Shown: positions 1,541-31,464 of the stretch, piece by piece
Layout of the letters: each line of letters opens with the position of its first letter
Numbering within the stretch: position 1 is the stretch's first letter
Assembly: GCA_964626845.1 (NCBI GenBank)
Contig: CAZVGR010000005.1
Location: forward strand, 36,557 to 100,556
Origin: an uncultured Anaerolinea sp.
GTDB lineage: Bacteria; Chloroflexota; Anaerolineae; JAAEKA01
Reading direction: 5' to 3'
DNA: 64,000 bases
The notes under the pieces: model-generated
Databases searched by the model: none
The model's input: only the letters and a program-made list of their open reading frames with translations
What the model was told of the DNA's origin: nothing
Program-made: the position numbers and the translations under genes

Positions 1541-1619
1541 GATCCGTGCTCGGTGACCGATAGACGATGATCGGTGAAGCGCGGGCCGACCAGCGAATAT
1601 CGGTCACCGAGCACGGATC
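1541..1619 (-). terminator. Long hairpin (22-bp perfect arms GATCCGTGCTCGGTGACCGATA / TATCGGTCACCGAGCACGGATC, 35-nt loop) overlapping the stop of the PocR regulator gene; possible terminator or structured element
   Basis: Perfect inverted repeat read directly. On the minus strand it is followed by ATCATCATTTTT. Atypical for an intrinsic terminator (long loop). Confidence 0.3.
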
Positions 1620-2560: not shown

Positions 2561-2971
2561 GTGAAGATTGCAGTCGTCACTGATAATCAAACTACCATCA
2601 GTCAGCACTTTGGCCGCGCCCACTATTATCTGGTCTTCACCGTTGAGGATGGACAGGTCGTGCAGCAGGAGTTGCGTGACAAGCTGGGCCACGACCAGTT
2701 CCAGCATGAGGAGCACAGCCATCATGATCATGATCACGGCCATCAACAAGGGCATGGCTTCGGCCAGCACTCGCAGGACAAACACAGCCGCATGATGGCC
2801 AATCTGACCGACTGCCAGGTCTTGCTGGCCGGCGGTATGGGCATGGGCGCCCACGCGAACCTGGAAGCCATTGGGGTCAGGCCGATCCTGACCAGCGTGC
2901 GGGAGATCGACGCGGCGCTGCAAGCCTATCTGGCCGGCGAGCTGGCGGACCAGCCAAGGCTGCTGCACTAG
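2561..2971 (+). CDS. NifX/NifB-C-terminal (dinitrogenase FeMo-cofactor-binding family, PF02579-like) protein with a His-rich insertion
   Basis: GTG start preceded by AAGGAG. MKIAVVTDNQTTISQHFGRAHYYLVF is the hallmark N-terminus of this family. Insert HEEHSHHDHDHGHQQGHGFGQH. C-term DCQVLLAGGMGMGA. Confidence 0.7.
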   Translation: MKIAVVTDNQTTISQHFGRAHYYLVFTVEDGQVVQQELRDKLGHDQFQHEEHSHHDHDHGHQQGHGFGQHSQDKHSRMMANLTDCQVLLAGGMGMGAHANLEAIGVRPILTSVREIDAALQAYLAGELADQPRLLH

Positions 2972-3144: not shown

Positions 3145-4302
3145 CTAGGCAGGGGCTAACTCCAACAACACCTGCTCCAAGGGCGCTTCTGGCGGGCCGG
3201 CCGGCAGCGTGAACCAGAAGGTACAGCCCTGGCCCAGCCCGGCGCTCTCGACTCCCACCTGGCCGTTGAGCTTGGTCACAATACGCTGTACGATGGACAG
3301 GCCCAGGCCGTGGCCGATCGCCTGACCTTGATCGATCCGGGTGAAAGCGCTATACAGCCTGGCTTGCTGCTCCGGCGTCAGGCCAGGTCCGTGGTCGCGC
3401 ACCCAAAAGCGCACGTAGCCATCGATCGGCTCGGTGGCGCCCAGCTCGATCTGCGCCGGGCTGCCGCCATATTTGATGGCGTTGCTGATATAATTCACCC
3501 ACACTTGCTCCAGCCAGGGGACATAGCCCAGCGCCGAAGGCCAGGTTTCTGGCGCCTGTATCTGCGCTCCGGCTTCTTTTGCTTCCCCCGCCAGGCGCTC
3601 CAGGGCTTCATGCACCGGCTGCTCCATGCTCACCGGCGCCACGCGCAGCTCCATCTGGCGAACCTCGGCCAGCAACAGCAGTTCTTTGGTGATGGTTGAC
3701 ATCTTGAGGAGGATCTCAGTCAGGCTGGCCAGAAAAAGCTGGCGGTCTTCCGGTGGATACAGATCCTCTGCGCCTTGAAGCAGATCGGCATAGCCCAAAG
3801 CCACCGCAATTGGGTTGCGCAGGTCATGGGCCACGGTGTGTGCATAGGCGTGCAGATCGGTGATCAGCTCATCGCGCTCGACAATCTGCTGCTCAAGCCG
3901 CCGCTGGAGGCTGCGCAGCGTGAGGTGAGTTTGCACCCGCGCCAGAATCTCCTCCAGTTGAAATGGCTTGGTAACATAGTCTACGCCGCCCGCGGTGAAC
4001 GCCTTGATCTTATCCTCGGTCTCGCTCAGCGCGCTGATGAACAGGACCGGAATGTCACGCGTGCGCGGGTCGGCTTTCAGCAACTTGCAAACCTCGTAGC
4101 CGTCCATGCCTGGCATCCGAATGTCCAGCAGAATCAGGTCGGGCGGCAAGGTCTGCGCGGCGGCCAGAGCCTGAGGACCACTGCGCACCGGCCGGGCTTG
4201 ATAGCCGTTTTCGGTCAGCATCTGAGACAGCAGACGCAGATTGGCCGAGGTATCGTCGACGACCAGAACACTGGCAAGACGATCAGTTGGTTGGGAGGTC
4301 AT
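3145..4302 (-). CDS. Response-regulator receiver fused to histidine kinase (REC-HisKA-HATPase)
   Basis: VLVVDDTSANLRLL...DLILLDIRMPGMDGYEV...KPF (REC), then HDLRNPIAV (H-box) and HATPase motifs (GLGLSIVQ). 8 bp downstream of the preceding kinase gene. Confidence 0.8.
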   Translation of the reverse strand: MTSQPTDRLASVLVVDDTSANLRLLSQMLTENGYQARPVRSGPQALAAAQTLPPDLILLDIRMPGMDGYEVCKLLKADPRTRDIPVLFISALSETEDKIKAFTAGGVDYVTKPFQLEEILARVQTHLTLRSLQRRLEQQIVERDELITDLHAYAHTVAHDLRNPIAVALGYADLLQGAEDLYPPEDRQLFLASLTEILLKMSTITKELLLLAEVRQMELRVAPVSMEQPVHEALERLAGEAKEAGAQIQAPETWPSALGYVPWLEQVWVNYISNAIKYGGSPAQIELGATEPIDGYVRFWVRDHGPGLTPEQQARLYSAFTRIDQGQAIGHGLGLSIVQRIVTKLNGQVGVESAGLGQGCTFWFTLPAGPPEAPLEQVLLELAPA

Positions 4303-4310
4303 GGTAATCC

Positions 4311-6493
<2,183 letters not shown>

Positions 6494-6497
<4 letters not shown>

Positions 6498-8449
6498 AAC
6501 GAGCTCTCTTGGTATTCTGGCGTATGATCTTCTTGGCGATAGCATTCATCAAGGGTGAAGTAGAAGCCAGCGCCTTGGGCAGGGGCGGCGTCGGCCCAGA
6601 TTTTTCCGCCGTGGCGGTGAATGATGCGCTGGACGATGGTCAGGCCGATGCCGGTGCCAGGGAACTCAGAAGCCTTGTGCATCCGCTGGAACGGGCCGAA
6701 CAGCTTTTGGGCGTAGGCAGGATCGAAACCGGCTCCGTTATCCCGCACCACAAATGCCGGCTGGCCATCCAGGTCAACCTGGCCGAACTCGATGCGCGCC
6801 TGCGCCGTCTTGCTGGTGAACTTGAAGGCGTTGTCCAGCAGGTTACTCAGCGCAATCTCCAGCAGGTTGGCGTCGCCGATGGCGGTCAGCCCCGGCTGGA
6901 TGACGAACGTCACCTGCCGCTGCGGGGCTGATGCTTGCAGCGTGGCGGTCAGCCGTGCGGCCATGGCGCTCAGGTCGACCGGCTGGCAGCGCATCTCGGC
7001 GCGCGCCAGCCGCGCCAGGTTGAGCAGGTCGTCGATCAGCCGGGCCATGCGTTGGGTCTCGGAACGCACCCGATGCAGGTAGCTTTGCGCCTGCGGGTCA
7101 AGCTGGTCACCGTAGTCTTCCAGCAGGGCCAGGCTCCAACCGTCGATCCCGCGCAGCGGCGAGCGCAGGTCGTGCGATACCGAATAAGAGAACGCCTCTA
7201 GCTCGCGGTTGGCCGCCTCCAGTTGGCGCGTGCGCTCCCGCACCCGCTGCTCCAGCTCGGCGTTCATCTGTTGAATTCTGGCCTCTGCCAGCCGGCGTTC
7301 GGTCACATCTTCCCCGATGCTGGCGACGCCAATGACCTCGCCTTTGGTGTTGCGCAGGATGGTGTTGTTGAACCGCACCCACCGCACATCACCCGAGCGG
7401 GTCAGCAGCGGATTTTCGGCATGGGCGGGCATATCTTCGCTGCGCAGCCGGGAGAGGATGGTCTCCTTCACCTGCTGCCAGTTGGACGGCGCAAAGCGCG
7501 GGAAGTACTCCTGGCCCAGCACTTCCTCGCGCGGCCAGCCGGTCAGTTGCAGCAAGTAATCGTTGCAGAACGTGACGCGGCCCTCCAGGTCCAGCGTAAC
7601 CGCCACCAAATCTACTTGCTCCAGCAGCTCGCGGTAGCGCGCCGCGTTGAGCCGGGAAAGCGCCCAGTAGTTCTGGGCAAAAAAGACCGAGCTGAGCATC
7701 AGGGCCGAAAGAGTCAGGCTGACAGCCAGGCTCCTCTGGGCGCTGGTCGCTTCAAGGCGCCAGTGTTGCTCGGTGGGCGCAAAGAACAGGTTCAAAACCT
7801 GGGCGTCTTGCAGGTTGATACTTTCTCTGACTTCATCGCCCGCGTGGCGCTCTGTCCAGTTCTCCGACACGTAAACGGCGTTTGCTTCGTTGAGGAGCTG
7901 CACGGCGTAATCTGCCAGGAGGTCTTCGGTCAGCGGCGCGGTGAAGCTGGGCAGATCGACGATGCCCAGCACGAAGCCCTCCAGCCGGCTGCCGGTATAG
8001 ACGGGCGCCAACAGCCTGATCTGGGAGGGCAACAGGGGGATGGCGCTGGCTAACTGGCCTACCAGGCCCTCTCCTGCGGCCGTTGGCACACTGAGGCGCA
8101 GCATGTAGTCCCGGTCGATCCAATGGATGGTCTCAAGGCCCGCAAACGAGTCGATGTAAAACGCGGCGTCCTTGATCCACAACTCCTCTTTCTGGGGGGT
8201 ATCCAGCCGGCCGCGGCCGGCCAGCCGATTAACGGCGTTGACGATGCCGCGATAGCGGATCTCGGCGTCGCTGGAAAGCGCAATCGCGTTGGCTTCGGTT
8301 TTTGCGCGCAGTTGCGCGAGGTTGCTTGCCTCTTGTGCTTTCCAGACAACAATTGAAAGGGCCGTCAGACCGACCGCCAGCACAGCCAGGAAGAGATTGC
8401 TGGCCAGAAAAGGCTGGGATCTGCCAGACTGCGTGTTCGAGGGGGCCAT
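6494..8449 (-). CDS. Sensor histidine kinase with N-terminal TM + extracytoplasmic sensing domain, PAS, HisKA, HATPase
   Basis: TM LFLAVLAVGLTALSIVVW, ~230-aa periplasmic region, second TM, PAS, H-box SHDLRSPLRGI, HATPase (GTGIGLTIVQ). 22 bp downstream of the solute-binding protein gene. Confidence 0.8.
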
Positions 8450-8470
8450 GCGCCGTGCGCTCCTTGGAGC

Positions 8471-10021
8471 CTAGGACCGTTGTTTTTGCCAGGCCGTGTT
8501 CCAGATATCCACGATCGTCCTCGCGCCAAGCTGCTCCAGCTCAGCCAGGTAGGCATCCCAATCCTGGTCGATATCCAGCTCACCGGTGATGAACTGCATG
8601 CTGGTTCGGGCTACGTAGGGGGAAAGTCGTTCGTTGATCAGGCGGATAACCTCAATCGACTGGGCATCCAGCGTGAGCTGCGGGCTGAGCTCAGCCGTCT
8701 CATTGGCCGCAAGGGATCGATCCAGAAAGGCGACGATCTCGTCCGGCTTTTTGTAGTCCTCGAACTCCTCGTTCTCAACCAGGTTGAACATCTGGTTAAA
8801 GCCGTACTCTGCGGCGACATCCAGCGTACCGTCGGGGTTTTTGGGGGTCTTGATGTGGGGCAGGAAGACCTTGCCATCGGCGGTGTTTTCATAGGTCAGG
8901 CCCTCGACGCCCCACACGGTCAGGGTGCGGCCTTCATCGGAATAGATCGCCCAGTCCAAAAAACTGAGCAGCGCAGGCAAGCGGGGATCGTCGGCCATGC
9001 GCGAGGAGATGGCCAGCCCTTTGCGGAAGGGGTCTACGGCAGGCAGCGCCCTGATGCCGATGGTGCTTGCTGGCACAGGCAGAGACGCCCATTCGGCGTC
9101 GGGGAAGCCGTTTTCGTGCAGCGCGTTGTTCCAGTTGGCAAAGCCCGACGTGATCCAGGTGACTGTGACGAAAGCCCGACCGTCTTGCAGCTTGGCATAG
9201 AATTTATCGTCGCTCTGGGTGAACAGCTCTGGATCCAGGATGCCAGCGTCGTAGCTGCGCCGCAGGAAGGAGTACATCGCGCGGTAATTCTCTGTAGCCG
9301 GAGCATACTCCCAGCGGTCCTCGGCGGCGTTGTAGGCGCTGACGCCAGCCCAGCCGGCCGGGATGCCGTAGCCCGCGCCCATCATGGCGAACAAATGCGC
9401 GCCGCCCCACAGTGTGCTGAGCGGAGTCGACTCAGGGTAGAGTTCTTTCAGCTTCACCAGGGCAGCAAACAACTCGTCGTAGGTGGTCGGCGTAGGAATC
9501 TGATGCGCCTCGAACAGATCGCGGCGGTAGATCCACTGCTGCACCTGAATCCTGCGTTGATAGCCGGGCAGCAGATAGTACTTGCCGTTGGCCAGGCGCA
9601 GTTTGTCCAGCTCGCCTTGCAGATTGTTCTGCTCGATGTAGGCCTGGAAATAGGGCATCTGGTCTACATAGTCACTAATTGGCAGCAGCACTCCGGCGTT
9701 AGCATAGCTTTCGATGGGCTTGGGCCAGACCTTCAGGATGATGTCGGGTGGATCGCCCGACTCGAGAGCCTGGACAACGGCTTTTTCGTAGTCCGAGTCA
9801 GCCCCCAGGCGCACATCGAGACTGACGTTCTGGCGTCGTTTGTACTCCTCCAGAATCAGCCAGTCTGGTCGAAAAGGGGCGATCTCACTGTTGTTGAACA
9901 GCACCGAAAAGGTCACCGGTTCAGCGGGTTGAATGGGCTGAGCTGGCTGGGCAGGCGGGGGGACGCACCCAACGGCAAGCAACCCGAGCAGCAAGGCAAT
10001 CACCAACCTTCTGGCGCGCAT
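8471..10021 (-). CDS. Extracellular solute-binding lipoprotein (ABC-type family-1 sugar-binding-protein fold), orphan: no permease/ATPase genes nearby
   Basis: MRARRLVIALLLGLLAVGC (lipobox), PQ-rich linker, ~490-aa SBP-like body. Immediately upstream of and co-oriented with sensor kinase 6494-8449. Confidence 0.7.
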   Translation of the reverse strand: MRARRLVIALLLGLLAVGCVPPPAQPAQPIQPAEPVTFSVLFNNSEIAPFRPDWLILEEYKRRQNVSLDVRLGADSDYEKAVVQALESGDPPDIILKVWPKPIESYANAGVLLPISDYVDQMPYFQAYIEQNNLQGELDKLRLANGKYYLLPGYQRRIQVQQWIYRRDLFEAHQIPTPTTYDELFAALVKLKELYPESTPLSTLWGGAHLFAMMGAGYGIPAGWAGVSAYNAAEDRWEYAPATENYRAMYSFLRRSYDAGILDPELFTQSDDKFYAKLQDGRAFVTVTWITSGFANWNNALHENGFPDAEWASLPVPASTIGIRALPAVDPFRKGLAISSRMADDPRLPALLSFLDWAIYSDEGRTLTVWGVEGLTYENTADGKVFLPHIKTPKNPDGTLDVAAEYGFNQMFNLVENEEFEDYKKPDEIVAFLDRSLAANETAELSPQLTLDAQSIEVIRLINERLSPYVARTSMQFITGELDIDQDWDAYLAELEQLGARTIVDIWNTAWQKQRS

Positions 10022-10065
10022 GGGACTACTCCTTTGTGCTGATTACAGCGTGAACAAAGTCTTTG

Positions 10066-10131
10066 AGGTGCCCGGCACTTGATGCGAGGTCGTCATTACG
10101 TGCGAATCGTCGCATCAAGTGCCGGGCACCT
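10066..10131. mobile_element. MITE-like palindromic element, variant subfamily (core GGTGCCCGGCACTTGATGCGA ... TCGCATCAAGTGCCGGGCACC)
   Basis: 22-bp perfect inverted arms sharing the GTGCC(C/G)GGCAC core with family 1. Related copy at 45796-45899 in opposite orientation. No clear TSD. Confidence 0.5.
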
Positions 10132-10159
10132 ATGCGCAGTTACTTGGTTGACGCTGTAC

Positions 10160-13201
<3,042 letters not shown>

Positions 13202-13234
13202 CCTTCACCTGCCTTTGTGATAAGCCCAACGCCA

Positions 13235-16200
13235 TCAGGTCGTACTCAAGCTGTGGAACAAAGGTCTGTCCATCATTATACCACCAGTCTCCAGGATCGC
13301 ATCGTAGTCAAAATCGTCGATTGAGCGCCGCAGCGCAGCAGCCAGCTCGGGCTGTGCGGCCTCGACCTCGGCCGCCAGCGCCAGAAGCTGCCCGGCGTCG
13401 GCCGCCAGCGCGGCCTGGCGCACCTGCGCCGCCCAGCCGTCCGGCAGCGCCGTCAGGTCGATCGCCGGCGGGGCAGCCGCTGGAGTGACCGACGGCGCGT
13501 CGGCGTAGACCATCTGCACGCCCAGATGTCTGACCAGGCAGGCCACGATCTCTTCTGCGCGATAGGGCTTGCCCACGAAATCGTCGCAGCCATCGGCGCG
13601 CATCGCTGCGTGTTTATCGCTCAGAACACCGGCCGAGATGGCCACGATCACCGTTTGCTGACCCTGGGCGGTGGCCTTGATGCGCCGCGTGGTTTCATGG
13701 CCGTCCAGCGCTGGCATGCGCATGTCCATCCAGATCAGGTGCGGCTGCCACTCCTCCCACACCTGGATCGCCTCCTGCCCGTTCCCGGCCGTGCGCACGG
13801 CGAAACCCAACTGGGTCAGCAAGCCGGCCAGCAGCTCACGGCTTTCGGCGTGATCCTCCGCCACCAACAGGCGGTAATCAGGCTGGCCCGGCGCCAGGAA
13901 GGCTGTGCGCGGCCTGTCCGCCAGCGGCCTGCCAGTCTCGCCGTCCGCAACCGCCAGGCGCAGCGGCAAGACCACCTCAAAGCGGCTGCCCTCGCCAGGG
14001 ATGCCCGCGCTGAAGGCCGTCAGATCACCGCCCATCAGACGGGCGAATTGCTGGCTAATGGGCAAGCCGAGCCCGGTGCCGTCAGGCGCGTTGTGCCCAT
14101 TGGCAGACTGCACAAACGGCTCGAAGATCGCTGTCAGGTCGGCGGGCAAGATGCCAGAGCCGGTGTCTTGCACGGCGATCAGCAAACGGTCGTCGTCGCC
14201 GCCAGTTCGCTGCGCCGACAAGTCGATGCGACCGGACGGGGTGAACTTGACGGCGTTGCTCAGCAGGTTGATCAATATCTGGCGCAGCTTGCCTTGGTCG
14301 GCGTGGACCCAACGCGGCAGGCCGGGCCAGACTGTCAACGTCAGACTGATCCCCTTGGACTCGGCGCGCAGGCGGAACAGATCTGCAATATCTTCCAGCA
14401 GGTGGTGCAGGTTGAAGTCGCCCTCTTGCAGCACGGTGCGGCCTGCCTCGATCCTGGCCATGTCCAGCACATCGTTGATCAAAGCAAGCAAGTGATCACC
14501 GCTGCGGTTGATGATGGCCAGATTCTCGTGTTGCTTGGCGGTAAGATTGGCATCTCGGGCCATCAGTTCAGAGAAGCCCAGAATGGCGTTCAGCGGTGTG
14601 CGCAGCTCATGGCTGATGCTGGCCAGAAACTGGCTCTTGGCGCGATTGGCCGCTTCGGCCTGAGCGGCCATCTGGCTGGCGTGAGCTGTCTGCGCCGCCA
14701 ACTGGGCATTGGCCTGCCGCAGTTCCTCTTCGGCCCGTTTGCGTTCCCTGATATCGCGACTCACGCCGAGAATCTCCACGAAACCGCCGCTGGGACTGAG
14801 GATCGGAAACGCCATGACCTCGGCCCAGATGGTAGAGCCATCCTTATGGATGTATTCAAGCTCTCCCCGAAAACTCTCCAGCGGAAGACCTGCCTCTACA
14901 GCGGCCCATAAGTTCTGGTAGTACGCCTGGACAACAGCCTGGGAAGCAGGCGTAAGGATTTGCTCCAGCGGCTGCTGCAACGACTCGGCAGGCTTTACAC
15001 CACGCATCTGTTCGACCGATGGGCTGACATAAGTCATGCTGCCGTCAAGTCCATTCACCCAAACGACATCTCTGGCATTTTCGGCCAACAGCCGGTGGCG
15101 TATTTCGCTGATGCGCAGCGCTTCCACGGCCTGTTTGCGTTCCACTACAGACCAGACGGCATCCATCAACAATGACACCTGGAAGACATCGTCTTCCTGA
15201 TAGTCGGTTGCTTTGTTGGCCAGGCCGATCACGCCCACGATTTGTTGGCCCCGCCAAATCGGCGTCGTCATAAAACTCGTCAATCGTACATGGCCATCTG
15301 GAAGGCCTTTTTTCAAAGCATGGTTGGCCTGGAAGTCGTTGACAATGATCGGTCTGCGCTGACGAACGGCCTCACCCCAGATGCCGGTCTTGTCCAGCTC
15401 ATAACAGGTCTGCGGATTCACCACGTCGCAGTCAGGCATAACCTCCTTCGACCACGTGTTGAGGACAAATTCCTGGCGGTCCTCGTGGTAATGATAGATA
15501 TAGCCGATCTTGCTTTCAGTCAGCTCAATCGCCTCGGCCAGGGCGTAATCGAGGAATTGCTGGACGGACTCGGCCGGGTGTTTCAGAATGTTGACCAGTT
15601 TCTGCAGACGCATGTTGCTGCGTGTGATCTGCTCCTCTGCCTGCTTACGCTCGGTGATGTCCTGAAAAACCCCATAAACGCGCGCCGCCTGGCCGTCTTC
15701 TCGGTCAACATTACCAATGGCTCGCACCCAGAGATGATTTCCCTTCGCCGTGATGAAAGGCAATTCAAGATCAAAGGGCAGGTCTTCGGTCAGCGCCCGC
15801 TCAATTGCTTTCTGTATAACCGGCCGGGCGCTGGGTGCATAGAAGTTGATGGCAGAGTCCAGCTCAAGACGAAAATCAGGCTCCACCTCGTGAATCCGGT
15901 AGGTCTCTCGGGTCCAGGTGAGTTGGTTGGTCTTCAGGTCAAGCCCCCAGCCGCCGACCTTGGCCAGACTGCCCATGGTGCTCAGCAATTCCTCGCTCGC
16001 CCGCAGATCGTTCTCCATCTGCTTGCGTTCGCTGATATCGCTGATGCTGGACATGACACACGGTTCGTCGTTGACCACGATGACCTGCGCCGAGATCAGC
16101 CCGGTAAGCAACTCGCCTGATTTGCGGCGAAACTGAACCTCGCGTGCCGGCAAATGGCCCTGCGCTACCAGCCCTTCCAGCAGGCTGTTGCGATCTTCCG

Positions 16201-17038
16201 GGTTAGCCCAAACGTTCAGGTCCAGCATGGTCTTGCCCACAATCTCATCTCCGGTGTAGCCGCTCATCTGGACGAAGCCGTCGTTGACCTCGAAGATTTG
16301 CCCGGTTGGCAGGCTGGTAAGCGTGACCGCGTAGGGGGCGGAACGAAAAACTCGGGCGTATTTCTCCTCCTGTGCCAGGATCTGTTCCACCAGCCGCCTG
16401 TTGACCATGGCTATCAGGCTGATGGTCAGCGAGACGTTGAGCATGATGTAGAAGGTCATGGCCAGCGAATTCACCAGCCCGGTCTGGAAAAAATCGTTGG
16501 TTTGGGCGGGGATGACCAGGTGCAGACTGATGCGGGTCAGGCTGACGGCGGCATAGCCGGCCAGCACCAGGCCGGTCAGGCGGGTCACGGGGCGCAGGCT
16601 GGGGCTGACTCTTCGCAGCAGCAGCCAGGAAGCCTGAGCGGCGAAGAGCAGCAGCGCTGCCGAGATGACGATCTCGCGCACTTTCAGGCTCGGCTGCACG
16701 AACAGGAAATAGGTCAACAAGACTGGCGCGGCAGCCGCCGCGACATAGTTCCAGCCTTGCCGGCGCTGCTTGCCTGTAAAGCGCTCCAGTCCGATGAGTA
16801 GCAACAGCGCCCCGCTGATTACAAATGTGTTGGCGACGACGACCGACAGAAAATCGGGCACGCGGCCGCGCACCAGGATTAGCCCTGCGCCCGCGAACTG
16901 GCACATCATATCGGCCAGCCAGAACGAGATGCCAGCAAAACGACGGCGGTTGTTCAGCCACAGCAGCCACAGCGCGCCCATGTTGATGGTCGCAATTGCC
17001 AGCAGCAGCAGGATCAGTGTCTTGATGTCAAAGATCAT
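13235..17038 (-). CDS. Membrane-bound hybrid sensor histidine kinase (N-terminal polytopic domain, PAS, GAF, PAS, HisKA, HATPase, REC, C-terminal tail)
   Basis: Probable start MIFDIKTLILLLL at 17038, 5 bp after the upstream gene's stop (the track ORF extends to 17323, N-terminal 95 aa implausible). ~7 hydrophobic helices, GAF-like region (YIYHYHEDRQEFVL...), H-box ISHELRTPLNAILGF, REC, tail SIDDFDYDAIL. Confidence 0.8.
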   Translation of the reverse strand: MIFDIKTLILLLLAIATINMGALWLLWLNNRRRFAGISFWLADMMCQFAGAGLILVRGRVPDFLSVVVANTFVISGALLLLIGLERFTGKQRRQGWNYVAAAAAPVLLTYFLFVQPSLKVREIVISAALLLFAAQASWLLLRRVSPSLRPVTRLTGLVLAGYAAVSLTRISLHLVIPAQTNDFFQTGLVNSLAMTFYIMLNVSLTISLIAMVNRRLVEQILAQEEKYARVFRSAPYAVTLTSLPTGQIFEVNDGFVQMSGYTGDEIVGKTMLDLNVWANPEDRNSLLEGLVAQGHLPAREVQFRRKSGELLTGLISAQVIVVNDEPCVMSSISDISERKQMENDLRASEELLSTMGSLAKVGGWGLDLKTNQLTWTRETYRIHEVEPDFRLELDSAINFYAPSARPVIQKAIERALTEDLPFDLELPFITAKGNHLWVRAIGNVDREDGQAARVYGVFQDITERKQAEEQITRSNMRLQKLVNILKHPAESVQQFLDYALAEAIELTESKIGYIYHYHEDRQEFVLNTWSKEVMPDCDVVNPQTCYELDKTGIWGEAVRQRRPIIVNDFQANHALKKGLPDGHVRLTSFMTTPIWRGQQIVGVIGLANKATDYQEDDVFQVSLLMDAVWSVVERKQAVEALRISEIRHRLLAENARDVVWVNGLDGSMTYVSPSVEQMRGVKPAESLQQPLEQILTPASQAVVQAYYQNLWAAVEAGLPLESFRGELEYIHKDGSTIWAEVMAFPILSPSGGFVEILGVSRDIRERKRAEEELRQANAQLAAQTAHASQMAAQAEAANRAKSQFLASISHELRTPLNAILGFSELMARDANLTAKQHENLAIINRSGDHLLALINDVLDMARIEAGRTVLQEGDFNLHHLLEDIADLFRLRAESKGISLTLTVWPGLPRWVHADQGKLRQILINLLSNAVKFTPSGRIDLSAQRTGGDDDRLLIAVQDTGSGILPADLTAIFEPFVQSANGHNAPDGTGLGLPISQQFARLMGGDLTAFSAGIPGEGSRFEVVLPLRLAVADGETGRPLADRPRTAFLAPGQPDYRLLVAEDHAESRELLAGLLTQLGFAVRTAGNGQEAIQVWEEWQPHLIWMDMRMPALDGHETTRRIKATAQGQQTVIVAISAGVLSDKHAAMRADGCDDFVGKPYRAEEIVACLVRHLGVQMVYADAPSVTPAAAPPAIDLTALPDGWAAQVRQAALAADAGQLLALAAEVEAAQPELAAALRRSIDDFDYDAILETGGIMMDRPLFHSLSTT

Positions 17039-19469
17039 CGTGGGCCGCCTTTGCCCTGCCGTTGAGAGCGGCAAGAATTGCGTCGTAGTCGTAGTCGTTG
17101 ATCCACACCCGCAGGGCATCGGCCAGCGCGGGCTGCACAGGCTGGGCGGCTGCGGCCAGATCGTCGAGCTGCGCTGTGTCGGCCGCCAGCGCGGCCTGGC
17201 GCACCTGATCGCTCCAGCCGGCCGGCAGAGCGGCGAGATCGAAAAGCTGCCGGGCGCCTTCTTCCGGATTGACTGGCGCATAAAGCATGCGCACGCCCAG
17301 ATGCCTGACCAGACAGTCGACAATCTCGTCGGCGCGGAAGGGCTTTTGCAGGAAATCGTCGCAACCGTCGGCCAGCACGGCGGCGCGCTCCTCTTCCAAC
17401 ACGCTGGCCGAAAGGGCGATGATCACCGTGGCCTGGCCTTGGGGGGTGGCCTTGATGCGCCGCGTCGCCTCGTGGCCATCCATCACCGGCATGCGCATGT
17501 CCATCCAGATCAGGTGCGGCTGCCACGCCTCCCACTGTTGCACAGCTTGCACGCCGTTCTCAGCGGTGCGCACGGCAAAGCCCCACTGGCTGAGCCACTG
17601 ATACAACAGTTGCCGGCTTGCCGGGTGATCCTCCACCACCAACAGGCGGTAGGCTGGCTGGTCAGGCTCCAGGCCAAGGACGCGCGGCCCGCCTGCGCGC
17701 AGACCGGCGCGTTCCTCAGGTTCCTCGACCGGTTCCAGGGGGATGCTGAACTGGAAGAGGCTGCCCTGGCCCGCCACGCCAGCGCTAAAGGCCGTCAGCT
17801 CGCCGCCCAGCAGGTGGACATACTGGCGGCTGATGGCCAGGCCCAGCCCGGTCCCTTCGCGGGCAGCGTGACCGTTGCCAGCCTGCACGAAGGGATCAAA
17901 AATAGTCGCCAGCTCCTCAGGTGCAATGCCGGGGCCGCTGTCCTGCACGGCGAAAAGCAGCCGCCCGCTGCCGTCGTCGGCCCAACTCACCGACAGCTCG
18001 ACCAGGCCGGTCTCGGTGAACTTCACTGCGTTACCCATCAGGTTGATCAGCACCTGGCGCAGCTTGCCCTGGTCGCCATGCACCCAACGAGGCGCATCGG
18101 GCCAGAGCGTGAGAACCAGCAGCAGCCCTTTGGCTTCAGCGCGCAGCCGGAACAGATCGACCAGGTCTTCCAACAGTTGGTGCAGGTTGAAGTCGACCTG
18201 GTTGAGCGTGCTGCGGCCGGCCTCGATCTTAGCCAGGTCCAGCACATCGTTGATCAGGCTTAAGAGGTGGGCGCCGCTGTGATTGATGATGGCCAGGGTG
18301 TCCGCCTGTTGGCGTGAGAGTCCGGGATCTCGGCTCATCAGCTCGGAGAAGCCCAGAATGGCGTTCAGCGGCGTGCGCAGCTCGTGGCTCATGCTGGCCA
18401 GGAAGATGCTCTTGGCGCGATTGGCGGCCTGGGCCACATCTCTGGCGTGAGCCAGCTCTTCTTCGTTCTGTTTTCGCTGGGTGATATCGTGCAGTGTGGC
18501 CAGCCGGCCGGTTGCGTGCTGAAAACGGTCAACCAACGGCGCCACATACACGTCATAGATGTGCTGGCAGCCCAGGGGCGTGCATAGCTCGCGATGGGTT
18601 TCCTGGTCACAGTCCAGCACCTCGTTCAGCTCAGGCCAGGAGCGCAGCGCCAGCGCAGCCGGCTGGCCGATGACGGCGGGGGACAGTTGCGTGATCCGCT
18701 GCGCGGCCGGGTTGATGTCCACGATGCGCCGCTGAGGGTCGAGCACGATCACGCCGTCGGCCATGCTCTCAACCAGCTTGTCGCGCGCAATGGGCGCCAC
18801 ATCCAGCAGGTGATAGTAAAACAAACCAACGGCGAACATCAGCCCGGACAGGGTGAAGACGAAGGGGGTGATGTCCAGGTCAGGAAAAGGGCTGAGCCCG
18901 GCGATGCTGATGACGTTGCCTATCCACGGCAAAAGCGCGCCCAGGAGGATAACGCCGGTCTGGGGGCGATAAAAAGCCGGGGTGCGCCGATAGGCCCGCA
19001 CCAACAGCGCCACTGCCAGCAACAGCAAGCCATAGGAATAAAGGGCATTGAACCAGAACGCCGGGCCGCCATTGAGGATTGAGCCGGTGGTGCGCCGGCC
19101 GCCGTAAAACAGGCCGTGCCAATCGTCGGTCCAGAGCAGGATCAGAGTCAGCGCCGGCGCCACGCAAAGCAACAGGAGCCTGCGCCGCGTCAGCCAGTGC
19201 GCACGGCCGGTGTATTGCAAGACGAAGATCAAAAACGCGACAGGAATGAGCACAACCCCGAAGTAGGTGGCATCCAGCCAAAAATACTGCTTTGGCAGAT
19301 CTGAAACATGCCAGCGGATGGCGTAGGTCAGGGACCAAATCACCAACGCTGACATGAAGAGTATCATCGCCGGCGCGCCGGGGGCGCTGCGACGACGCCA
19401 ACTGAGCGCCACAACTGCGGCCGCCATAAGGGCTGAAAGGATGAGAGCCAGGGAATAGTGCCAGTTCAT
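17028..19469 (-). CDS. Hybrid sensor histidine kinase with N-terminal 7TM sensor domain (PAS, HisKA, HATPase, REC, C-terminal tail)
   Basis: Seven predicted TM helices in the first ~220 aa, PAS, H-box MSHELRTPLNAILGF, REC (HLIWMDMRMPVMDG), tail WINDYDYDAILAAL. 4-bp overlap with the upstream gene. Confidence 0.85.
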   Translation of the reverse strand: MNWHYSLALILSALMAAAVVALSWRRRSAPGAPAMILFMSALVIWSLTYAIRWHVSDLPKQYFWLDATYFGVVLIPVAFLIFVLQYTGRAHWLTRRRLLLLCVAPALTLILLWTDDWHGLFYGGRRTTGSILNGGPAFWFNALYSYGLLLLAVALLVRAYRRTPAFYRPQTGVILLGALLPWIGNVISIAGLSPFPDLDITPFVFTLSGLMFAVGLFYYHLLDVAPIARDKLVESMADGVIVLDPQRRIVDINPAAQRITQLSPAVIGQPAALALRSWPELNEVLDCDQETHRELCTPLGCQHIYDVYVAPLVDRFQHATGRLATLHDITQRKQNEEELAHARDVAQAANRAKSIFLASMSHELRTPLNAILGFSELMSRDPGLSRQQADTLAIINHSGAHLLSLINDVLDLAKIEAGRSTLNQVDFNLHQLLEDLVDLFRLRAEAKGLLLVLTLWPDAPRWVHGDQGKLRQVLINLMGNAVKFTETGLVELSVSWADDGSGRLLFAVQDSGPGIAPEELATIFDPFVQAGNGHAAREGTGLGLAISRQYVHLLGGELTAFSAGVAGQGSLFQFSIPLEPVEEPEERAGLRAGGPRVLGLEPDQPAYRLLVVEDHPASRQLLYQWLSQWGFAVRTAENGVQAVQQWEAWQPHLIWMDMRMPVMDGHEATRRIKATPQGQATVIIALSASVLEEERAAVLADGCDDFLQKPFRADEIVDCLVRHLGVRMLYAPVNPEEGARQLFDLAALPAGWSDQVRQAALAADTAQLDDLAAAAQPVQPALADALRVWINDYDYDAILAALNGRAKAAHDDL

Positions 19470-22400
19470 CGGGCTTGATCCAGATCAGACAGGAGGGGCT
19501 CTGCTGGCTCGGCGGCGGCCAGCAAAGCCAGGATCGCGTCATAGTCATAGACATCCAGCCAATCGCGCAACACATCGGCCAGCACAGGCCACTGCTCGTT
19601 CACATCGTCTGCCAGGCGCAGCAGGCGAGTAGCGTCGGCTGCGATAGCCGCCTGTTGCACCTGGTCTCGCCAGGCAGGGGGCAGGCTGGCGAGGTCGATG
19701 CCTGCCAGCTTCTGCTGGCTGGCCTGCGTTTGCTTGTCTGGCGTTGCAGCATAGAGCATGCGCACGCCCAGGTGATTGACCAGGCAGTCCACGATCTCGG
19801 CCATGCGGAAGGGCTTGCGCACGAAGTCATCGCAGCCGCTGGCCAGCATCAATGCTTTCTGTTCAGCCAGAACGCTGGCCGAGATGGCGATGATGACGGT
19901 GTCCTGGCCGTTGGGCATGGCCTTGATGCGCCGTGTAGCCTCATAGCCGTTCATCACCGGCATGCGGATGTCCATCCAGATCAGATGCGGCCGCCAGTCC
20001 TGCCAGACATCGAGGGCCTCCAGGCCGTTGTCGGCTGTGCGCACGGCGAAGCCCAACTGTGTCAGCAGGCTGGTCAGCAGCCGCTGGCTTTCGGGGCGAT
20101 CCTCGACGACCAGCAGGCGATATTCAGGCTGGCCCGGCTCCAGGCCGATGGCATGTTCGCTGGGCGTGGCGTGTTCGTGGGTGAACTCAGCCACTTCCGG
20201 TAAGGCAATGGCAAACTCGAAGCGGCTGCCCTGGCCCGGCTCGCCTGTGCTGGCAGCGATCAGATCGCCGCCCATCAAGCGCACAAACTCGCGGCTGATG
20301 GGCAGGCCCAGGCCGGTGCCCTGCGGCGCAATGTGCTCGTTGCTTGACTGCATGAAAGGCTCGAAAATCACCGTCAGATCGTCGGCCGGAATGCCCAGGC
20401 CGGTGTCCTGCACGGTGAAGACCACGCGGCCGCTGCCATCGTCCGCGCAGCGCACTGTCAGGTCGACGCTGCCTGCGTCGGTGAACTTGAACGCGTTGTC
20501 CAGCAGGTTGATCAACACCTGGCGCAGCTTGCCTTCGTCGGCATGAACCAGACGAGGGACGTCAGCAGAGCGGGCGCAGCGCAGCTCGATATTCTTGACA
20601 ATCGCACGCAGGCCGAACATCTCGTCCAGCTCATCCAGCATTCGGTGCAGGTCGAAGCTATCTTCTTGCAGCGTGATGCGCCCCGACTCGATTTTGGACA
20701 CGTCTAACACGGTGTTGATCAGGCCCAGCAGATGCTCGCCGCTGCGGTTGATGATGGTCAGATTCTCCCGTTGGTCCGGCGTCAACCCAGGGTCGCGCGC
20801 GATCAGCTCGGAGAAGCCCAGGATAGCGTTGAGCGGCGTGCGCAGCTCGTGACTCATATTGGCCAGGAACTGGCTTTTGGCGCGGTTGGCGGCCTCAGCG
20901 GCCTCCTTGGCCTCGGCCAGTGCGGCTTCGGCCAGTTTGCGCTCGGTGATGTCGTGGCCCTGAGCGATGGTGGCGACCACAGTCTGGCCATCGGGGCCAT
21001 AGAGCATGGCCGAGTTCCACAGCAGCGTGTGCAGCTTGCCAGTGCTGTCTTCGATGGTGATCTCCACCGTTTCCCAGCGGCGCCCCGTGGTGGTGTAGAT
21101 GTAGTTCAAGGAGGCTTGGCGCTGCTCGACCGGAAAGAGAAGCCCCAGCCCCTGGCCCAGCATGTCGCTGGCGCTGCGGCCGGTCAGCCGCTCGAATGCC
21201 TTGTTGAACTGGGTAATCTTATAGTCAGCGTCCCAGACAATGATCGGCGCGTTGGCGTAGTTCAGCAGGTTTTGCAGGTATTCACTGGTCTCGTGCAGGG
21301 CATGCTCGACGCGGGTGAGCTCGGTGATTTCACGGGCAAGCTGGATGCGGCTGTAGCTGAGGTTAGAGATCATTTCGGCGAACTGCGAGTAAAACTGCAT
21401 GATCTCGTCGACGCGTTGATGGCTGAAACGCGGCGCCCGCGCCAGGGCTGCCAGATAGGTCTTCTCCTCGAAGCCGTAGAACTGAGCCTGAGCGCGGAAG
21501 AGCTCGATGTCAGGTTCCTCATCCTCAAAGAAGAACTGGCTGAGAAACAGGTTGCCAATGGGGTTGCCAGCTACCACGATGGGAGTGGCCACGTCCTGCA
21601 TGTGATTCCTGCATTTATAGATCTTGAAGTTGCCCGGCTCGGCTCCCTGCGCTAAAACCGTGGCGCTTTCGATGCAAAAGCTGCACGACACAGGGTCCGC
21701 CCGGTGGAACCGGGTGCAGATATCCTGCCGGCCGGTGGAGACCAGGATGTTGCCACGCATATCCATGATCGAGATGCCTATCTGGGTGATGGCGTAGAGA
21801 TGATCCAGCATGGCCTGGACGGCCGGCAGGTCGATGATGTCTCGCAGCTCCAGCTTGCTGATGTCCGCATCGGGGGTGAGAATGGCGTCGAGCCGCGCCC
21901 GCACCTGATCCTTTTCGCGGCGCAGGTTCGCCTCGCTCTCACGCAGCGCATCCTCAGCGCGCTTGCGTTCGCTGATGTCGCGCGCCAGGCCGCAGATATA
22001 GGCGCGGTCATGGAACTGAATATAGTTGGTCTGCACTTCAACAGGCAGCAACTCGCCTGTCTTCTTACGATGCCACCCTTCGATAGCCAGCGACTTCTGG
22101 CGCTGCATCTCCTGCCATCGGTCTTGCCACTGTTCAGGCGTCACATCCGCGTCCACCTGCCACACAGACATGCTCAGCAGCTCGTCCTGGGAATAGCCCA
22201 GTTGCGCACAAGCAGCTCTGTTGACATAGGCCAGACGACCATCGGCAGTTGCCCAGTAGGCCGCGTCGGCGCTGTGATCGACGACGAACTGGGTGAAGTG
22301 CAGCCGCTCCTCAGCCTGAATTCGCTCGGTGATGTCCTGGATGGTGGCCACTGCGTACTGCACTGAGCCGTCAGGCTGGCGCACACAGCCCACCGAGAGC

Positions 22401-23230
22401 ATGACCCAGAGGATGGTCCCGTCCTTGCGAATGAAGCGTTTCTCCAGCCCATAGGTGTCGATTTCGCCGGCCAGCAGCCGTTGGAACTGCTGCAAATCGG
22501 CGGGCAGGTCATCAGGGTGGGTCAGCTCAGCCCAGGTCATGCCGGCCAGCTCTTCGGCAGAATAGCCGAGCATGGCGCAGATGCTATGGTTGACCTCCAG
22601 CCATCCTTTTTCCAGCGACGTAACAGCCAGGCCGACATAGGGGGCATCAAAGTAACTGCGCAGTTGCGCCTCGCGCTCGGTCAGCCTGGCGGCGGTCTGC
22701 TCGGCGCCCCTCTTCGCCTGCTCCAAAGCGGCGGTACGCTCTTGCACCCTGTCTTCCAGCAAGGCGCGCTCAGCAGCCAGCTCGCGCAGCGCCTCCCGCC
22801 GCTGCCGCACGGCTGTGAGCAGATAAGCTGTCAGCAGCAGAAAGAAGATCAGCAGGACCAGCGCGCCGATAGCCGGCCACACGATGTCCCGCCAATGCGA
22901 AAGCGGCCTTGGGTGTTCGATGCGGGCGTTACCCTGCGGCAGAGCGCGTTTCGCAGTAGGGCTATCGAGGACTGCGCCGGAGAATTCAGTCGGGGGGTGT
23001 GAGGCCGCCAGCGCATCAAGCAGGCTGCGTTGACTCCCTGTGTACCGTGAGTAGCTTAGAGAGGCTGCATTGAGCGCCAACTTGCTGGGGGGCTGGTCAG
23101 CGGCGCTCTGCGCTTCGACGGCGGCGGGGGCGGCCATGGCCAGCGTCACAAGCACGAACAAACACAGCGTTGGCCTGTTGATCCAGTGGGGCAGGCGGCA
23201 AGACATCGTTCGAAGATAGGAAAAGATCAT
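19466..23230 (-). CDS. Hybrid sensor histidine kinase with signal peptide/periplasmic segment, TM, PAS domains, a PocR sensory domain, HisKA, HATPase, REC, C-terminal tail
   Basis: Signal-like MSCRLPHWINRPTLCLFVLVTLAMAAPAAVEA, TM WPAIGALVLLIFFLLLTAYLL. PocR-like block with cysteines (CTRFHRADPVSCSFC...YKCRNH). H-box MSHELRTPLNAILGF, REC, tail WLDVYDYDAILALL. Confidence 0.8.
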   Translation of the reverse strand: MIFSYLRTMSCRLPHWINRPTLCLFVLVTLAMAAPAAVEAQSAADQPPSKLALNAASLSYSRYTGSQRSLLDALAASHPPTEFSGAVLDSPTAKRALPQGNARIEHPRPLSHWRDIVWPAIGALVLLIFFLLLTAYLLTAVRQRREALRELAAERALLEDRVQERTAALEQAKRGAEQTAARLTEREAQLRSYFDAPYVGLAVTSLEKGWLEVNHSICAMLGYSAEELAGMTWAELTHPDDLPADLQQFQRLLAGEIDTYGLEKRFIRKDGTILWVMLSVGCVRQPDGSVQYAVATIQDITERIQAEERLHFTQFVVDHSADAAYWATADGRLAYVNRAACAQLGYSQDELLSMSVWQVDADVTPEQWQDRWQEMQRQKSLAIEGWHRKKTGELLPVEVQTNYIQFHDRAYICGLARDISERKRAEDALRESEANLRREKDQVRARLDAILTPDADISKLELRDIIDLPAVQAMLDHLYAITQIGISIMDMRGNILVSTGRQDICTRFHRADPVSCSFCIESATVLAQGAEPGNFKIYKCRNHMQDVATPIVVAGNPIGNLFLSQFFFEDEEPDIELFRAQAQFYGFEEKTYLAALARAPRFSHQRVDEIMQFYSQFAEMISNLSYSRIQLAREITELTRVEHALHETSEYLQNLLNYANAPIIVWDADYKITQFNKAFERLTGRSASDMLGQGLGLLFPVEQRQASLNYIYTTTGRRWETVEITIEDSTGKLHTLLWNSAMLYGPDGQTVVATIAQGHDITERKLAEAALAEAKEAAEAANRAKSQFLANMSHELRTPLNAILGFSELIARDPGLTPDQRENLTIINRSGEHLLGLINTVLDVSKIESGRITLQEDSFDLHRMLDELDEMFGLRAIVKNIELRCARSADVPRLVHADEGKLRQVLINLLDNAFKFTDAGSVDLTVRCADDGSGRVVFTVQDTGLGIPADDLTVIFEPFMQSSNEHIAPQGTGLGLPISREFVRLMGGDLIAASTGEPGQGSRFEFAIALPEVAEFTHEHATPSEHAIGLEPGQPEYRLLVVEDRPESQRLLTSLLTQLGFAVRTADNGLEALDVWQDWRPHLIWMDIRMPVMNGYEATRRIKAMPNGQDTVIIAISASVLAEQKALMLASGCDDFVRKPFRMAEIVDCLVNHLGVRMLYAATPDKQTQASQQKLAGIDLASLPPAWRDQVQQAAIAADATRLLRLADDVNEQWPVLADVLRDWLDVYDYDAILALLAAAEPAEPLLSDLDQAR

Positions 23231-23504: not shown

Positions 23505-26500
23505 TCAGTCACGCAACCGTTGTCTGGCCAGCCTGCTGGCTCCGGCCGCGGCCGCCAGAAGGGCCAGCGCAGGCAGCCAGGCGGGCGCGCCGGTCTGCGC
23601 CGCGGCATGGAAGCTGCTCCAGACAACGGCGGTGGGCGCATCGAACCGCGCCGAGACCGGACCAAAACGCTGCACAGAGCCATCCAGCGCCACAGCCTCC
23701 AGCCAATACCAGTAAGTCTCGCCAGGCAGCACATCCAGGTCGTCGTAGGCATAGAAGAAGCCGCCCGATGCGCCGGGGGACTGCGCCGGGATAAACGCCA
23801 ACAGATGCTGCCCGCCCTGGCTGGCGTCACTGCGCAGCAGGTGGAAGCCCTGGTTGTCCAGCTCGCTGGCCGTTTGCCACTGGATCTGCACGCGATCCGG
23901 CTGGCTGACCGCGCTCAGCATCTCCAGGGTCACGGCCAACGGCGTCTGGAACAAGGCTGAAACCGGCCCGAAGCTCTGGGTACTGCCGTCCGTGTCGAGA
24001 GCCTCCAGCCAGTACCAATAGGTGACGCCTGAGATCACGTCGTAGTCTTTGTACTCATACATGAAGCCGGCGGGACTGCCCGTGGACTGAGAGGGGATGT
24101 AGGCCAACGACTGGGGCGGCCCCTGGCTGGAGGTGCTGCGCAACAGGTAGAAGCCGCGGTTGTCCAGCTCGCTGGCCGTCTCCCATTCGACCAGGATATG
24201 GTCCATCTTACGCTCGGCCGCGAACGACACCATGGTCACAGCCGTCGGGCCGACGATGATGGGCGTGGTGTACACGTCCAGGCCCTCTGCCAGATTGGTG
24301 TAGCCGCTGGGCGGGATGATCTCGGCCATCATCACCAGATCGGCCGGGCCTGCAGTGGGCGCCACCGTCCCAACCACGGTAATCGTGATGATCCCGCCCG
24401 GCTGCAAGGTAAGGGTCTGGCTGAAACCGTTGCTGCCGCTAGGCGTCGTGCAGGAAGAGCCGCTGGAGGCGACGCATTGCCAGGTGACGCTGCCAAGCTC
24501 CTCTGGCAACGTGTCGCTGACAATGGGCGAGGCTGCAGTCGGGCCGTTGTTGGTGATCACAATCGTGTGCGTGATCAGATTCCCCTGCTTGACTGGGTTG
24601 GGTGTGCCGCTGATCTTCAACGGAATGTTGATCACCGGCTGCAGCACGCTGCCCGCGCCGCTCTCGCCGCTGTAGCTGATAGCATAGCCGTTCTGGTAAC
24701 TGGTAGTCGCCCGGTTAGTCAGCAGATTGCTGCCGCTGGCCAGCACGGTGATGGTATGGCTGTCAGTGGCCAGACTGCCCAGCCCGTCGCGCGCCGTTAC
24801 CACCGCCGTGTAGACGCCCGGCGTGCTGTAGGTGTGCTCGATGCTGGTGTTGGTAGTATACGACGCGCTCTGGTTGTCCCCGAAGCTGATGGTGTAGCTG
24901 AAGGGCAGCTTGCCGCGCAGCAATGGCAACATGGAAAACGTGACTTCTTCATCTTCCAGAGTTATCGATGGGGCGGTGACAAAGGGCACCGAGCGGCTAA
25001 AGGAGGCCTCCAGACGGTACAACAGGGCTGGATGGTCCTTGCCGCCGTATTCGGGGTGGCCGCCGTGGGTGCTGCCGGTGAGGCGCAGGGCCAGCAGGTT
25101 GACGCCGGCCAGCACGGCGCTGCTGACATCAGTGGCCGCGGCGTGACCCGCGCCATACTGAGTGGCCATATAGCGGCCATTGACGTAGATATCGACGATG
25201 TCGTCGCTGGCCGTCTGCAAGCTGGCCTGAAAACCGCGCGCGTTGGGCGGCAGGTAGAAGTATTGGCGGAAGAAGCTGTAGTTGCGGTCGATCTGCGGCT
25301 CCGGCTCGACCGCCACCCACTCGGCGCCCAGGGTTGCAGCCGGCAGCCAGTAAGGCTCGGTCGTCGCCGGGGGCTTCACGGTCTCCCAGAGCGAGTCGTC
25401 AAAGATCGGGCCATCAAGCTGTGGATTGCTCGTCCAGCCGGCCGGGCCAACCGGGTTGGCGTCGCCCCAGTAGCCCAGGATCGTGGAACAGCCCGCCGAG
25501 AAGCACCACGGACTGCTCACCGACTTGACGGTCGAGGTCAGAACCAGTGAACCTGAGGCGCTCTCGCTGCTGGCGGTGGGGGCTGACTGGCTGGCGCCGC
25601 CCGCGCCCACCCCGACCGTGACGGCAAAGCTGACCTGCCCGGTGGCGCCGACCCCCAGGTTGCCCAGATTCCAGGTGACCTTGCCACCGTTGGCGCTGCC
25701 GCCGCCGCTGATGCTGCCCGCAACCAGTGTCGTGTTGGCGGGGATCACATCGCTGATGACAACGCTGCGGGCTGCGACCGGGCCATCGTTGCGATAGACA
25801 ATGGTGTACGTGATCTGTCCGCTGACATAGCTCTGGCCGGCCACGCTCTTTTCCAGCACCAGGATGGGGCGAGCAATGCGCACGATATCCTCGGCGCTGT
25901 TGGTGCTGGGGTCCGGGTCTGGCCCACCAGCGCCGTCGTCGTCGATCTCCACCCGGTTGATGGTCAATTCGCCTGAGGCCGAAGCATCGACGGTGGCGGT
26001 CAGCACGATGGCGTGGGGACCATCGACAGCCACCTCGCCCAGGGTCCAGGTGACGACGCCAGCAGCATGGATGCCGGGTGGAGCGCTCTCCACGTAGGTC
26101 ATCCTTGGGTCCAGGGTGTCGGTGATGAGCACGCCCGAGGCCACCTGGCTGCCTGTGTTGCTGTAGGTGAGCGTGTACCGGACAGTCTGGTTGGCCTCGA
26201 AGTAGGTGCCGCTGTGGCTCTTGCGGATCACCAGGTCGGGCTGGGCGTTAACCGCCATCACCGCGGTGGACTGGTTGTCGGCCAGCACAGGGTCGCCCAC
26301 AGACGAGGTAATGTAGGCCGTGTTGCTGATCTGCTCCACGCCGGCCGGCAGCACATCGGTGATGCGCACGGTGAAGCTGATCACCCCGCTGGCGCCGGCT
26401 GCCAGATCGCCCAGGCTGAAACTGATCACCCGGCTTGCGCTGATATATTGCCCCTGATCTTCGTCATCGCCATCCGTCACGGGGCTGCCGTTCTGCTTCA

Positions 26501-30446: not shown

Positions 30447-30448
30447 TC

Positions 30449-30590: not shown

Positions 30591-30617
30591 GGATAATCAA
30601 CGACAACGCGCGCAGCT

Positions 30618-31438: not shown

Positions 31439-31464
31439 CCCAGGTCCGCTAGACTGCACAGATC

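Follow-up and report, generated by a model that had tools for sequence, protein, structure and literature searches.

As a rule, the signal of a hybrid histidine kinase requires a histidine phosphotransfer (HPt) step to reach the final regulator. Plant pseudo-HPts of the AHP6 type are HPt-shaped proteins without the phospho-accepting histidine, and would act by binding receivers. In Anabaena PCC 7120, the kinase CdgK (histidine kinase (HK)-receiver domain (REC)-REC-Hpt) is found together with CdgS (REC-GGDEF) (PMC9927289). In pathogenic Leptospira, the hybrid kinase LvrA is co-transcribed with a 'hybrid response regulator', LvrB; the LvrA histidine phosphorylates Asp56 of LvrB directly and stimulates LvrB autokinase activity, and PakF/KipF of Sphingomonas melonis are cited in the same study (PMC5863495). 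The locus described here is an array of two-component genes from an uncultured Anaerolinea sp. (Chloroflexota; contig CAZVGR010000005.1), located at positions 3145-23230 of a 64-kb window, the whole stretch of DNA that was analysed. Five of its seven histidine kinases (K1-K4 and K6) end in a conserved tail that sits at the position of an HPt domain, always with one receiver subtype, here called type A. What is new is an un-named output module consisting of a type-A REC, an HLGV linker and a predicted four-helix tail; the gene that comes next begins with a REC of another subtype, type B. The module offers a concrete way to test how these kinases hand on their signals.

In K1-K4 and K6 a near-identical REC (PHLIWMD[MI]RM) is followed by a tail closing with DYDAIL (DFEAIL in K4), as an initial annotation made from the sequence alone had claimed for these five kinases. 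That annotation gave the tail about 80 residues; a conserved C-terminal tail is real, and its core measures 52 amino acids, from LPxxW to (D/E)AIL. The core lies inside a stretch of 88-106 amino acids after REC helix α5, which also contains the HLGV segment and a variable linker. The linker motif (K/R)HLGVR(F/Y)xYE is conserved after the REC (His 85%, Tyr 11%). K4 is the outlier of the five: an Asp at the start of helix 2 that is 88% conserved in the family is His in K4, its tail closes with DFDFEAIL, and MAGMDG stands in its receiver in place of MPxMDG.

The tail is a genuine, widespread and unannotated domain. A hidden Markov model (HMM) of the tail matches the five copies with domain E-values of 1e-19 to 7e-25, and these are the only tails in the 64 kb. 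Searched against 1.84 billion representatives, a profile built from the five sequences matches at least 1,923 protein clusters (E<=0.001); with such E-values and this number of clusters, the similarity lies far beyond chance. The match is almost always within ~9 residues of the C-terminus and in long proteins. Relatives of REC and tail together (39-58% identity, near-full coverage) come mostly from cyanobacteria and often from Chloroflexota, with sporadic occurrences in Desulfobacterales, Latescibacterota and Noviherbaspirillum. Two seemingly stand-alone REC+tail proteins, P0034 and P0013, turned out to stem from gene calls that are split or fragmentary. Two tails are present in about 4% of tail proteins, and one protein has six in tandem; because tandem copies occur, the tail can be regarded as a module in its own right. 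The protein with six, P0205, is a CHASE8-HAMP hybrid kinase of 1360 amino acids, in which acidic, Pro-rich linkers lie between the divergent tails (repeat SLPKxLYDxLLEAAE…DYDTDxILEIL); no other protein was seen to have more than two.

That the tail fits no known domain model, as first proposed, was borne out by searches of Pfam, NCBIfam and PDB sequences. The five window tails have no Pfam or NCBIfam match even at E<=10, no domain of either database is assigned to the tail in 42 family members, and the tail profile has no meaningful match among all PDB sequences. Matches to DUF3502, B12-binding_2, HSCB_C and Rnk_N were weak, sub-threshold and inconsistent. DUF6852 (PF21186) was also rejected: the six repeats of P0205 sum to 37-38 bits, single repeats reach 14 bits (E~0.07), and the window tails do not match it.

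Gene order in other genomes connects the tail to a particular kind of partner. In a sample of 79 loci with 101 tail-bearing genes, the REC directly before the tail is of type A in 92 of 92 cases. The next gene on the same strand begins with a receiver in 73 of the 101, and all 73 of these receivers are of type B, the subtype of K7 (median 152 bits to the K7 REC); among 51 other receivers in the same loci, 31% are of the K7 type. Strong conservation across 62 aligned partner genes is found in the REC only. Their outputs comprise GGDEF (23, of which 19 with EAL), HisKA/HATPase (23), nucleotide cyclase (4), SpoIIE/PP2C (4) and Hpt (2), and none of the 62 has a DNA-binding output. The gene-order rule predicts partners for many orphan hybrid kinases, and these are mostly second-messenger enzymes, not transcription factors.

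K7 itself has orthologues (E 1e-88 to 1e-142) directly after tail kinases at loci L001, L002, L003, L045 and L068, all from Chloroflexota (Anaerolineae, Caldilineaceae). With these, and with K7-type receivers directly downstream of tail kinases in many genomes, the earlier suggestion that K7 forms the terminus of a relay is plausible. Operons of two or three tail kinases with one REC-HK recur (L049, L051, L057, L001, L052, L050 and L069) in Okeania, Microcoleaceae, Microcoleus, Coleofasciculus, Richelia and Caldilineaceae. This pairing of tail and then partner in cyanobacteria and Chloroflexota suggests a common, putative way of signal passing.

Such grouping could also mean that the tail is an oligomerisation module, through which the paralogous kinases of one operon form mixed complexes or arrays and integrate signals at the level of the kinases. 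Tail kinases often stand in tandem, with two or three in 18 of the 79 loci and five in the window; tandem tail repeats exist, and small helical bundles commonly mediate association. The other 61 loci have a single tail kinase, however, this role would not account for the strict association with a type-B REC downstream, and no coiled-coil or dimer prediction speaks in its favour. Oligomerisation as the role of the tail is thus distinctly unlikely.

The predicted structure of the tail bears on what it does at the HPt position. An AlphaFold2 model of the K2 tail alone has four short helices (predicted local distance difference test score (pLDDT) 85.7, predicted template-modelling score (pTM) 0.72), and a model of REC and tail with 124 homologues has a pLDDT of 90, a pTM of 0.67 and a low-confidence linker. 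A Foldseek comparison of the tail with the PDB gave nothing significant, the best template-modelling score (0.55) being that of HptB, and a fold search with the REC+tail model returned receiver domains only. In these models the tail appears HPt-shaped, and it is placed where the HPt sits in unorthodox kinases. As in CdgK, and also in kinases of the ArcB, BvgS and TorS type, the domain order is HisKA-HATPase-REC-small helical domain. Like that of CdgS, the next gene, putatively co-transcribed, begins with a REC (Asp60 in both CdgS and K7) and ends in an enzyme. In contrast, a true Hpt stands at the position of the tail in CdgK, and the tail, with 52 amino acids against ~100-120 in an HPt, is about half as large.

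The tail is not a working HPt, because it failed the defining sequence and histidine tests. Neither the five tails (at E<=10) nor any of the 42 family members matches Hpt (PF01627), and hhalign against an ArcB-family HPt profile, a narrow profile and the only one compared, gave a probability of 1.8%. Searches of the loci for sequences to widen this profile gave none: phmmer seeded with ArcB and YPD1 had no match, a motif scan returned HisKA H-boxes only, and an iterated hmmsearch strayed into receiver domains. Among 273 aligned tails no His is conserved, the highest frequencies being 23% (a loop column) and 14% (helix 1); conservation is seen in a hydrophobic core, in an Asp capping helix 2 and in an acidic/aromatic C-terminal motif. 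The initial annotation noted that the tail does not look like an Hpt domain, and its statement that the tail has no His holds for conserved positions across the family, the K4 tail itself containing one. Unlike HPt-bearing kinases, the tail kinases thus have at this position no conserved His, no Pfam Hpt match and no profile likeness to the ArcB HPt, so that the tail cannot relay phosphate as an HPt does.

One possible, though rather doubtful, interpretation is that the tail descends from an HPt domain, or mimics one, but has no His and docks in place of phosphotransfer. Together with its dedicated type-A receiver, it would form a widespread output module that couples hybrid kinases to type-B receivers fused to cyclic di-GMP enzymes, kinases, cyclases or PP2C phosphatases. 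If this is true, docking would constitute a route from hybrid kinases to a partner receiver without a recognisable HPt. The concept is that of the pseudo-HPts, an HPt-shaped module lacking the phospho-accepting His. Pseudo-HPts are, however, full-length, stand-alone eukaryotic homologues recognisable by sequence, whereas the tail is shorter, bacterial, fused to kinases and without detectable HPt homology. A literature search for a described His-less HPt-like domain of bacteria turned up plant pseudo-HPts only.

Alternatively, a classical phosphorelay may lead from the type-A REC through a remote HPt protein to the type-B REC of K7, with the tail acting in cis on the type-A REC, for example on its dimerisation, stability or dephosphorylation rate. 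PA1611 of P. aeruginosa, which signals via the separate HPt protein HptB, has the receiver most similar to the type-A REC among solved structures (37% identity). A close tie between REC and tail would also fit, as the two are never apart in the loci examined and are linked by the highly conserved HLGVRFxYE segment, and a remote gene has room outside the 64 kb of visible genome. Yet none of the open reading frames (ORFs) scanned in the window encodes an Hpt domain, and Hpt occurs in only 2 of the 62 partner genes. Tail copies numbering two to six in tandem are unexpected for a simple extension of the REC, and the low-confidence linker and pTM of 0.67 in the two-domain model suggest a separately folding module. 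A relay through a remote HPt therefore appears somewhat unlikely.

For the array as a whole, a signalling operon with many inputs and one output is proposed as a tentative reading, held at somewhat less than even confidence, in which K7 takes input from five sensors and the tail serves for docking, as an HPt-like module without the His. The five hybrid kinases offer different inputs: a short extracytoplasmic loop with PocR (K1), a seven-transmembrane (7TM) region (K2), a polytopic region with GAF (K3), multiple PAS domains (K4) and REC with PAS (K6). All five would signal to the single type-B receiver of the locus, the N-terminal REC of K7 (residues 12-124), which is the sole type-B REC in the 64-kb window. 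They may phosphorylate Asp60 of K7 directly, and phosphorylated Asp60 would turn on K7's own kinase, which would then act on a regulator whose gene lies elsewhere. The tail is envisaged as an HPt-shaped adaptor that docks the type-B receiver of the partner or gates access to it; with the tail docked, the phosphoryl group would go straight from the histidine of the dimerisation and histidine phosphotransfer (DHp) domain to the partner, and the cis type-A REC could act as a competing sink or switch. If so, the array would be a naturally occurring case of many sensors converging on a single second-tier kinase.

The layout of K6 and K7 is of the LvrA/LvrB type. In both cases a hybrid kinase is followed, on the same strand, by an adjacent REC-DHp-CA protein (CA, the ATP-binding catalytic domain) of ~380 residues, without a sensor or DNA-binding domain. 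The likeness between K7 and LvrB, which places K7 among proteins of the LvrB/PakF kind, is one of architecture and size (385 amino acids, Asp60 and His159 in K7; 382 amino acids, Asp56 and His161 in LvrB). The mechanism proposed for the array is the one demonstrated for LvrA and LvrB, a direct His-to-Asp transfer that stimulates the second kinase. Unlike the kinases of the array, LvrA as described has no C-terminal tail, and the Lvr system has one upstream kinase, not five.

Several points weigh against convergence on K7 by tail docking. Docking is something that we infer, and adjacency of kinases and response regulators is common in bacteria, so that the gene-order rule identifies the partner, not the role of the tail. 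Since none of K1-K4 comes with its own partner gene, the case for their convergence on K7 is one of parsimony only. The putative operon is deduced from gene spacing, which includes a gap of 138 bp between K4 and the gene for a solute-binding protein (SBP). A separate HPt protein may, finally, be encoded beyond the 64 kb of genome seen.

The relationships among the kinases are older than first thought. The initial annotation described seven paralogous kinases with cores ~60-70% identical and a recent expansion. Only K1-K4 and K6 are paralogous in this sense, with HK cores at 59-66% and REC+tail at 53-66% mutual identity; K5 and K7 are 22-32% identical to the five and to each other. The sensor regions of the five are essentially unrelated by sequence identity, in agreement with the diversified sensor ends noted earlier. 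Proteins from other organisms (P0131, P0125, P0129 and P0130) are 60-68% identical to the array paralogues, equal to or above identity within the array. As external proteins are as close as, or closer than, the array neighbours, the expansion is not recent; judged by these identities, the array appears to hold diverged members of an old gene family standing side by side, and not the result of a recent burst.

An array of old paralogues may also be a juxtaposition without a common pathway: independent orphan sensors left by old duplications, with K7 the partner of K6 only and the tail a conserved, functionally minor C-terminal cap. Besides the age of the paralogues, orphan and clustered two-component genes are common (PMC3018481), and gaps of 33 and 138 bp could house internal promoters. 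Overlapping or near-abutting frames, on the other hand, join K1 to K2 to K3 and K5 to K6 to K7, the layout of several tail kinases with one REC-HK recurs in distant phyla, and strong conservation of the tail extends over at least 1,923 clusters. Mere juxtaposition is accordingly judged unlikely.

An assembly artefact, by collapse or expansion, could in principle have produced false tandem copies, and short-read contigs from Logan do break within K6 at the conserved H-box region. The copies are, however, only 65-77% identical in DNA and differ in their sensor domains, the array proteins lie on one NCBI contig of 119,962 bp, and independent Logan short-read assemblies from several runs reproduce the order SBP-K5-K6. 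The DNA identity and the independent assemblies exclude an assembly duplication with near certainty. Each of the Logan contigs L080-L085 (SRR13617034-47), which come from the same organism, stops ~290 codons into K6, at the H-box region. These ends are probably a repeat-induced break at the region common to the five paralogues, which would explain why K1-K4 and K6 are seen on only one public contig.

The remaining input of the array involves the SBP and K5. In SBP-assisted sensor kinases such as LuxP-LuxQ, TorT-TorS, ChvE-VirA and XylFII-LytS, a binding protein takes part in sensing by the kinase. Like these systems, the array encodes an orphan SBP upstream of a kinase with two transmembrane segments and an extracytoplasmic domain, with no permease nearby. 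The SBP gene lies 21 bp upstream of K5, in which the two segments flank ~200 amino acids, and no ABC permease was found among the window ORFs scanned, as the initial annotation had stated. No homology of the SBP or K5 to the known pairs was found, in contrast, and the SBP-K5 interaction is putative. The ~200-residue outside domain of K5 matches no Pfam family, and a metagenome scan with K5 returned matches to the generic PAS and kinase core only, with no relatives of its sensor domain. The tail-kinase clusters of L047 (5164-10645) and L166 (6022-10834), too, each contain an SBP lipoprotein gene, though a non-orthologous one, that lies directly upstream of a two-transmembrane kinase. This recurrence, with three non-orthologous examples, lends modest support to SBP-assisted sensing. 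K5 is a classical non-hybrid kinase of another class, with neither REC nor tail. Because its gene overlaps that of K6 by 4 bp, K5 may feed the N-terminal receiver of K6, which is of a third subtype; SBP and K5 would then provide an extra SBP-assisted input, translationally coupled to K6.

In its gene content the array is an ordinary cluster of two-component genes. Eight co-directional, tightly packed minus-strand genes encode the seven histidine kinases and one SBP_bac_1 protein by Pfam, and both this arrangement and the domain architectures first described agree with Pfam and transmembrane predictions (Table 1). HisKA and HATPase_c are found by Pfam in every array kinase. K1-K4 and K6 have HisKA, HATPase_c and Response_reg matches at E 1e-20 to 1e-29, which identify them as hybrid histidine kinases, and the H-box SHELRTP and the receiver Asp motif MD[MI]RMP are visible in their sequences. 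K1 is 100% identical to the public protein P0122, whose annotation begins at M9. The start of K2 forms an ATGA overlap with the stop of K1, as does that of K6, set to 6497, with the stop of K5. The start of K3 was corrected from that of a long TTG ORF to 17038, where the protein matches the public protein P0124 at 100%; this creates an 11-nt overlap with the end of K2. The intergenic distances in transcription order are -4, -11, +33, +138, +21, -4 and +8 bp, the last being the gap between K6 and K7. The range of -4 to +22 bp given earlier is replaced by one of -11 to +138 bp, its lower end at the K2-K3 junction following from the shifted K3 start. A promoter and terminator scan of the array returned hits at chance level only.

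Table 1. Genes of the kinase array and selected domains, with positions in the 64-kb window.
Feature	Position	Strand	Description	Basis
K1	19466-23230	-	1254 aa; two transmembrane segments, PAS x2, PocR, PAS, HisKA, HATPase_c, type-A REC, tail	Pfam, transmembrane prediction
K1 tail core	19529-19684	-	LPPAW…DYDAIL	HMM match
K2	17028-19469	-	813 aa; HisKA_7TM, PAS, HisKA, HATPase_c, type-A REC, tail	Pfam, transmembrane prediction
K2 tail core	17073-17228	-	sequence used for structure model	HMM match
K3	13235-17038	-	1267 aa; polytopic membrane N-terminus, PAS x2, GAF, PAS, HisKA, HATPase_c, type-A REC, tail	Pfam
K3 tail core	13292-13447	-		HMM match
K4	10160-13201	-	1013 aa; cytoplasmic multi-PAS hybrid kinase, type-A REC, tail	Pfam
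K4 tail core	10181-10336	-		HMM match
SBP	8471-10021	-	516 aa; SBP_bac_1, signal/lipoprotein-like N-terminus (…LLAVGC)	Pfam, transmembrane prediction
K5	6494-8449	-	651 aa; transmembrane segment, ~200-aa extracytoplasmic domain, transmembrane segment, PAS, HisKA, HATPase_c	Pfam, transmembrane prediction
K6	4311-6497	-	728 aa; N-terminal REC (third subtype), PAS, HisKA, HATPase_c, type-A REC, tail	Pfam
K6 tail core	4335-4490	-		HMM match
K7	3145-4302	-	385 aa; type-B REC (Asp60), HisKA (His159), HATPase_c	Pfam
K7 type-B receiver domain	3931-4269	-		profile match

The array contains no DNA-binding output, as noted at the outset, but a regulator with HTH_17 and PocR domains that had been missed lies 736 bp beyond K7. 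This DNA-binding protein of 263 amino acids (1618-2409, minus strand) is encoded behind a convergent NifX-like gene (2561-2971, plus strand). A ligand common to its PocR domain and that of K1 cannot be argued, the two domains being only 26% identical.

Directly upstream of the array, a surface protein of 1825 amino acids (23505-28982, minus strand) contains six DUF11 repeats, lectin-like, PKD and CarboxypepD_reg domains and a C-terminal membrane anchor. Between its gene and that of a LysR regulator, the region 29451-34234 holds several ORFs of 124-384 amino acids without a Pfam match at E<=0.001. Further along, two multihaem c-type cytochromes (MtrC/MtrF-like and cytochrome c7 motifs) are encoded around a cytochrome b561-like membrane protein (39031-43054, plus strand), and these genes may constitute an extracellular electron-transfer module. 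The RuvB gene (49440-52034, minus strand) encodes 864 amino acids and includes an intein bearing a LAGLIDADG homing endonuclease (RuvB_N, Intein_splicing, LAGLIDADG_3). A PdtaS-like kinase (GAF_PdtaS, HisKA_2) followed by a REC-ANTAR protein (54509-56778, plus strand) forms a separate, classical pair of the PdtaS/PdtaR type.

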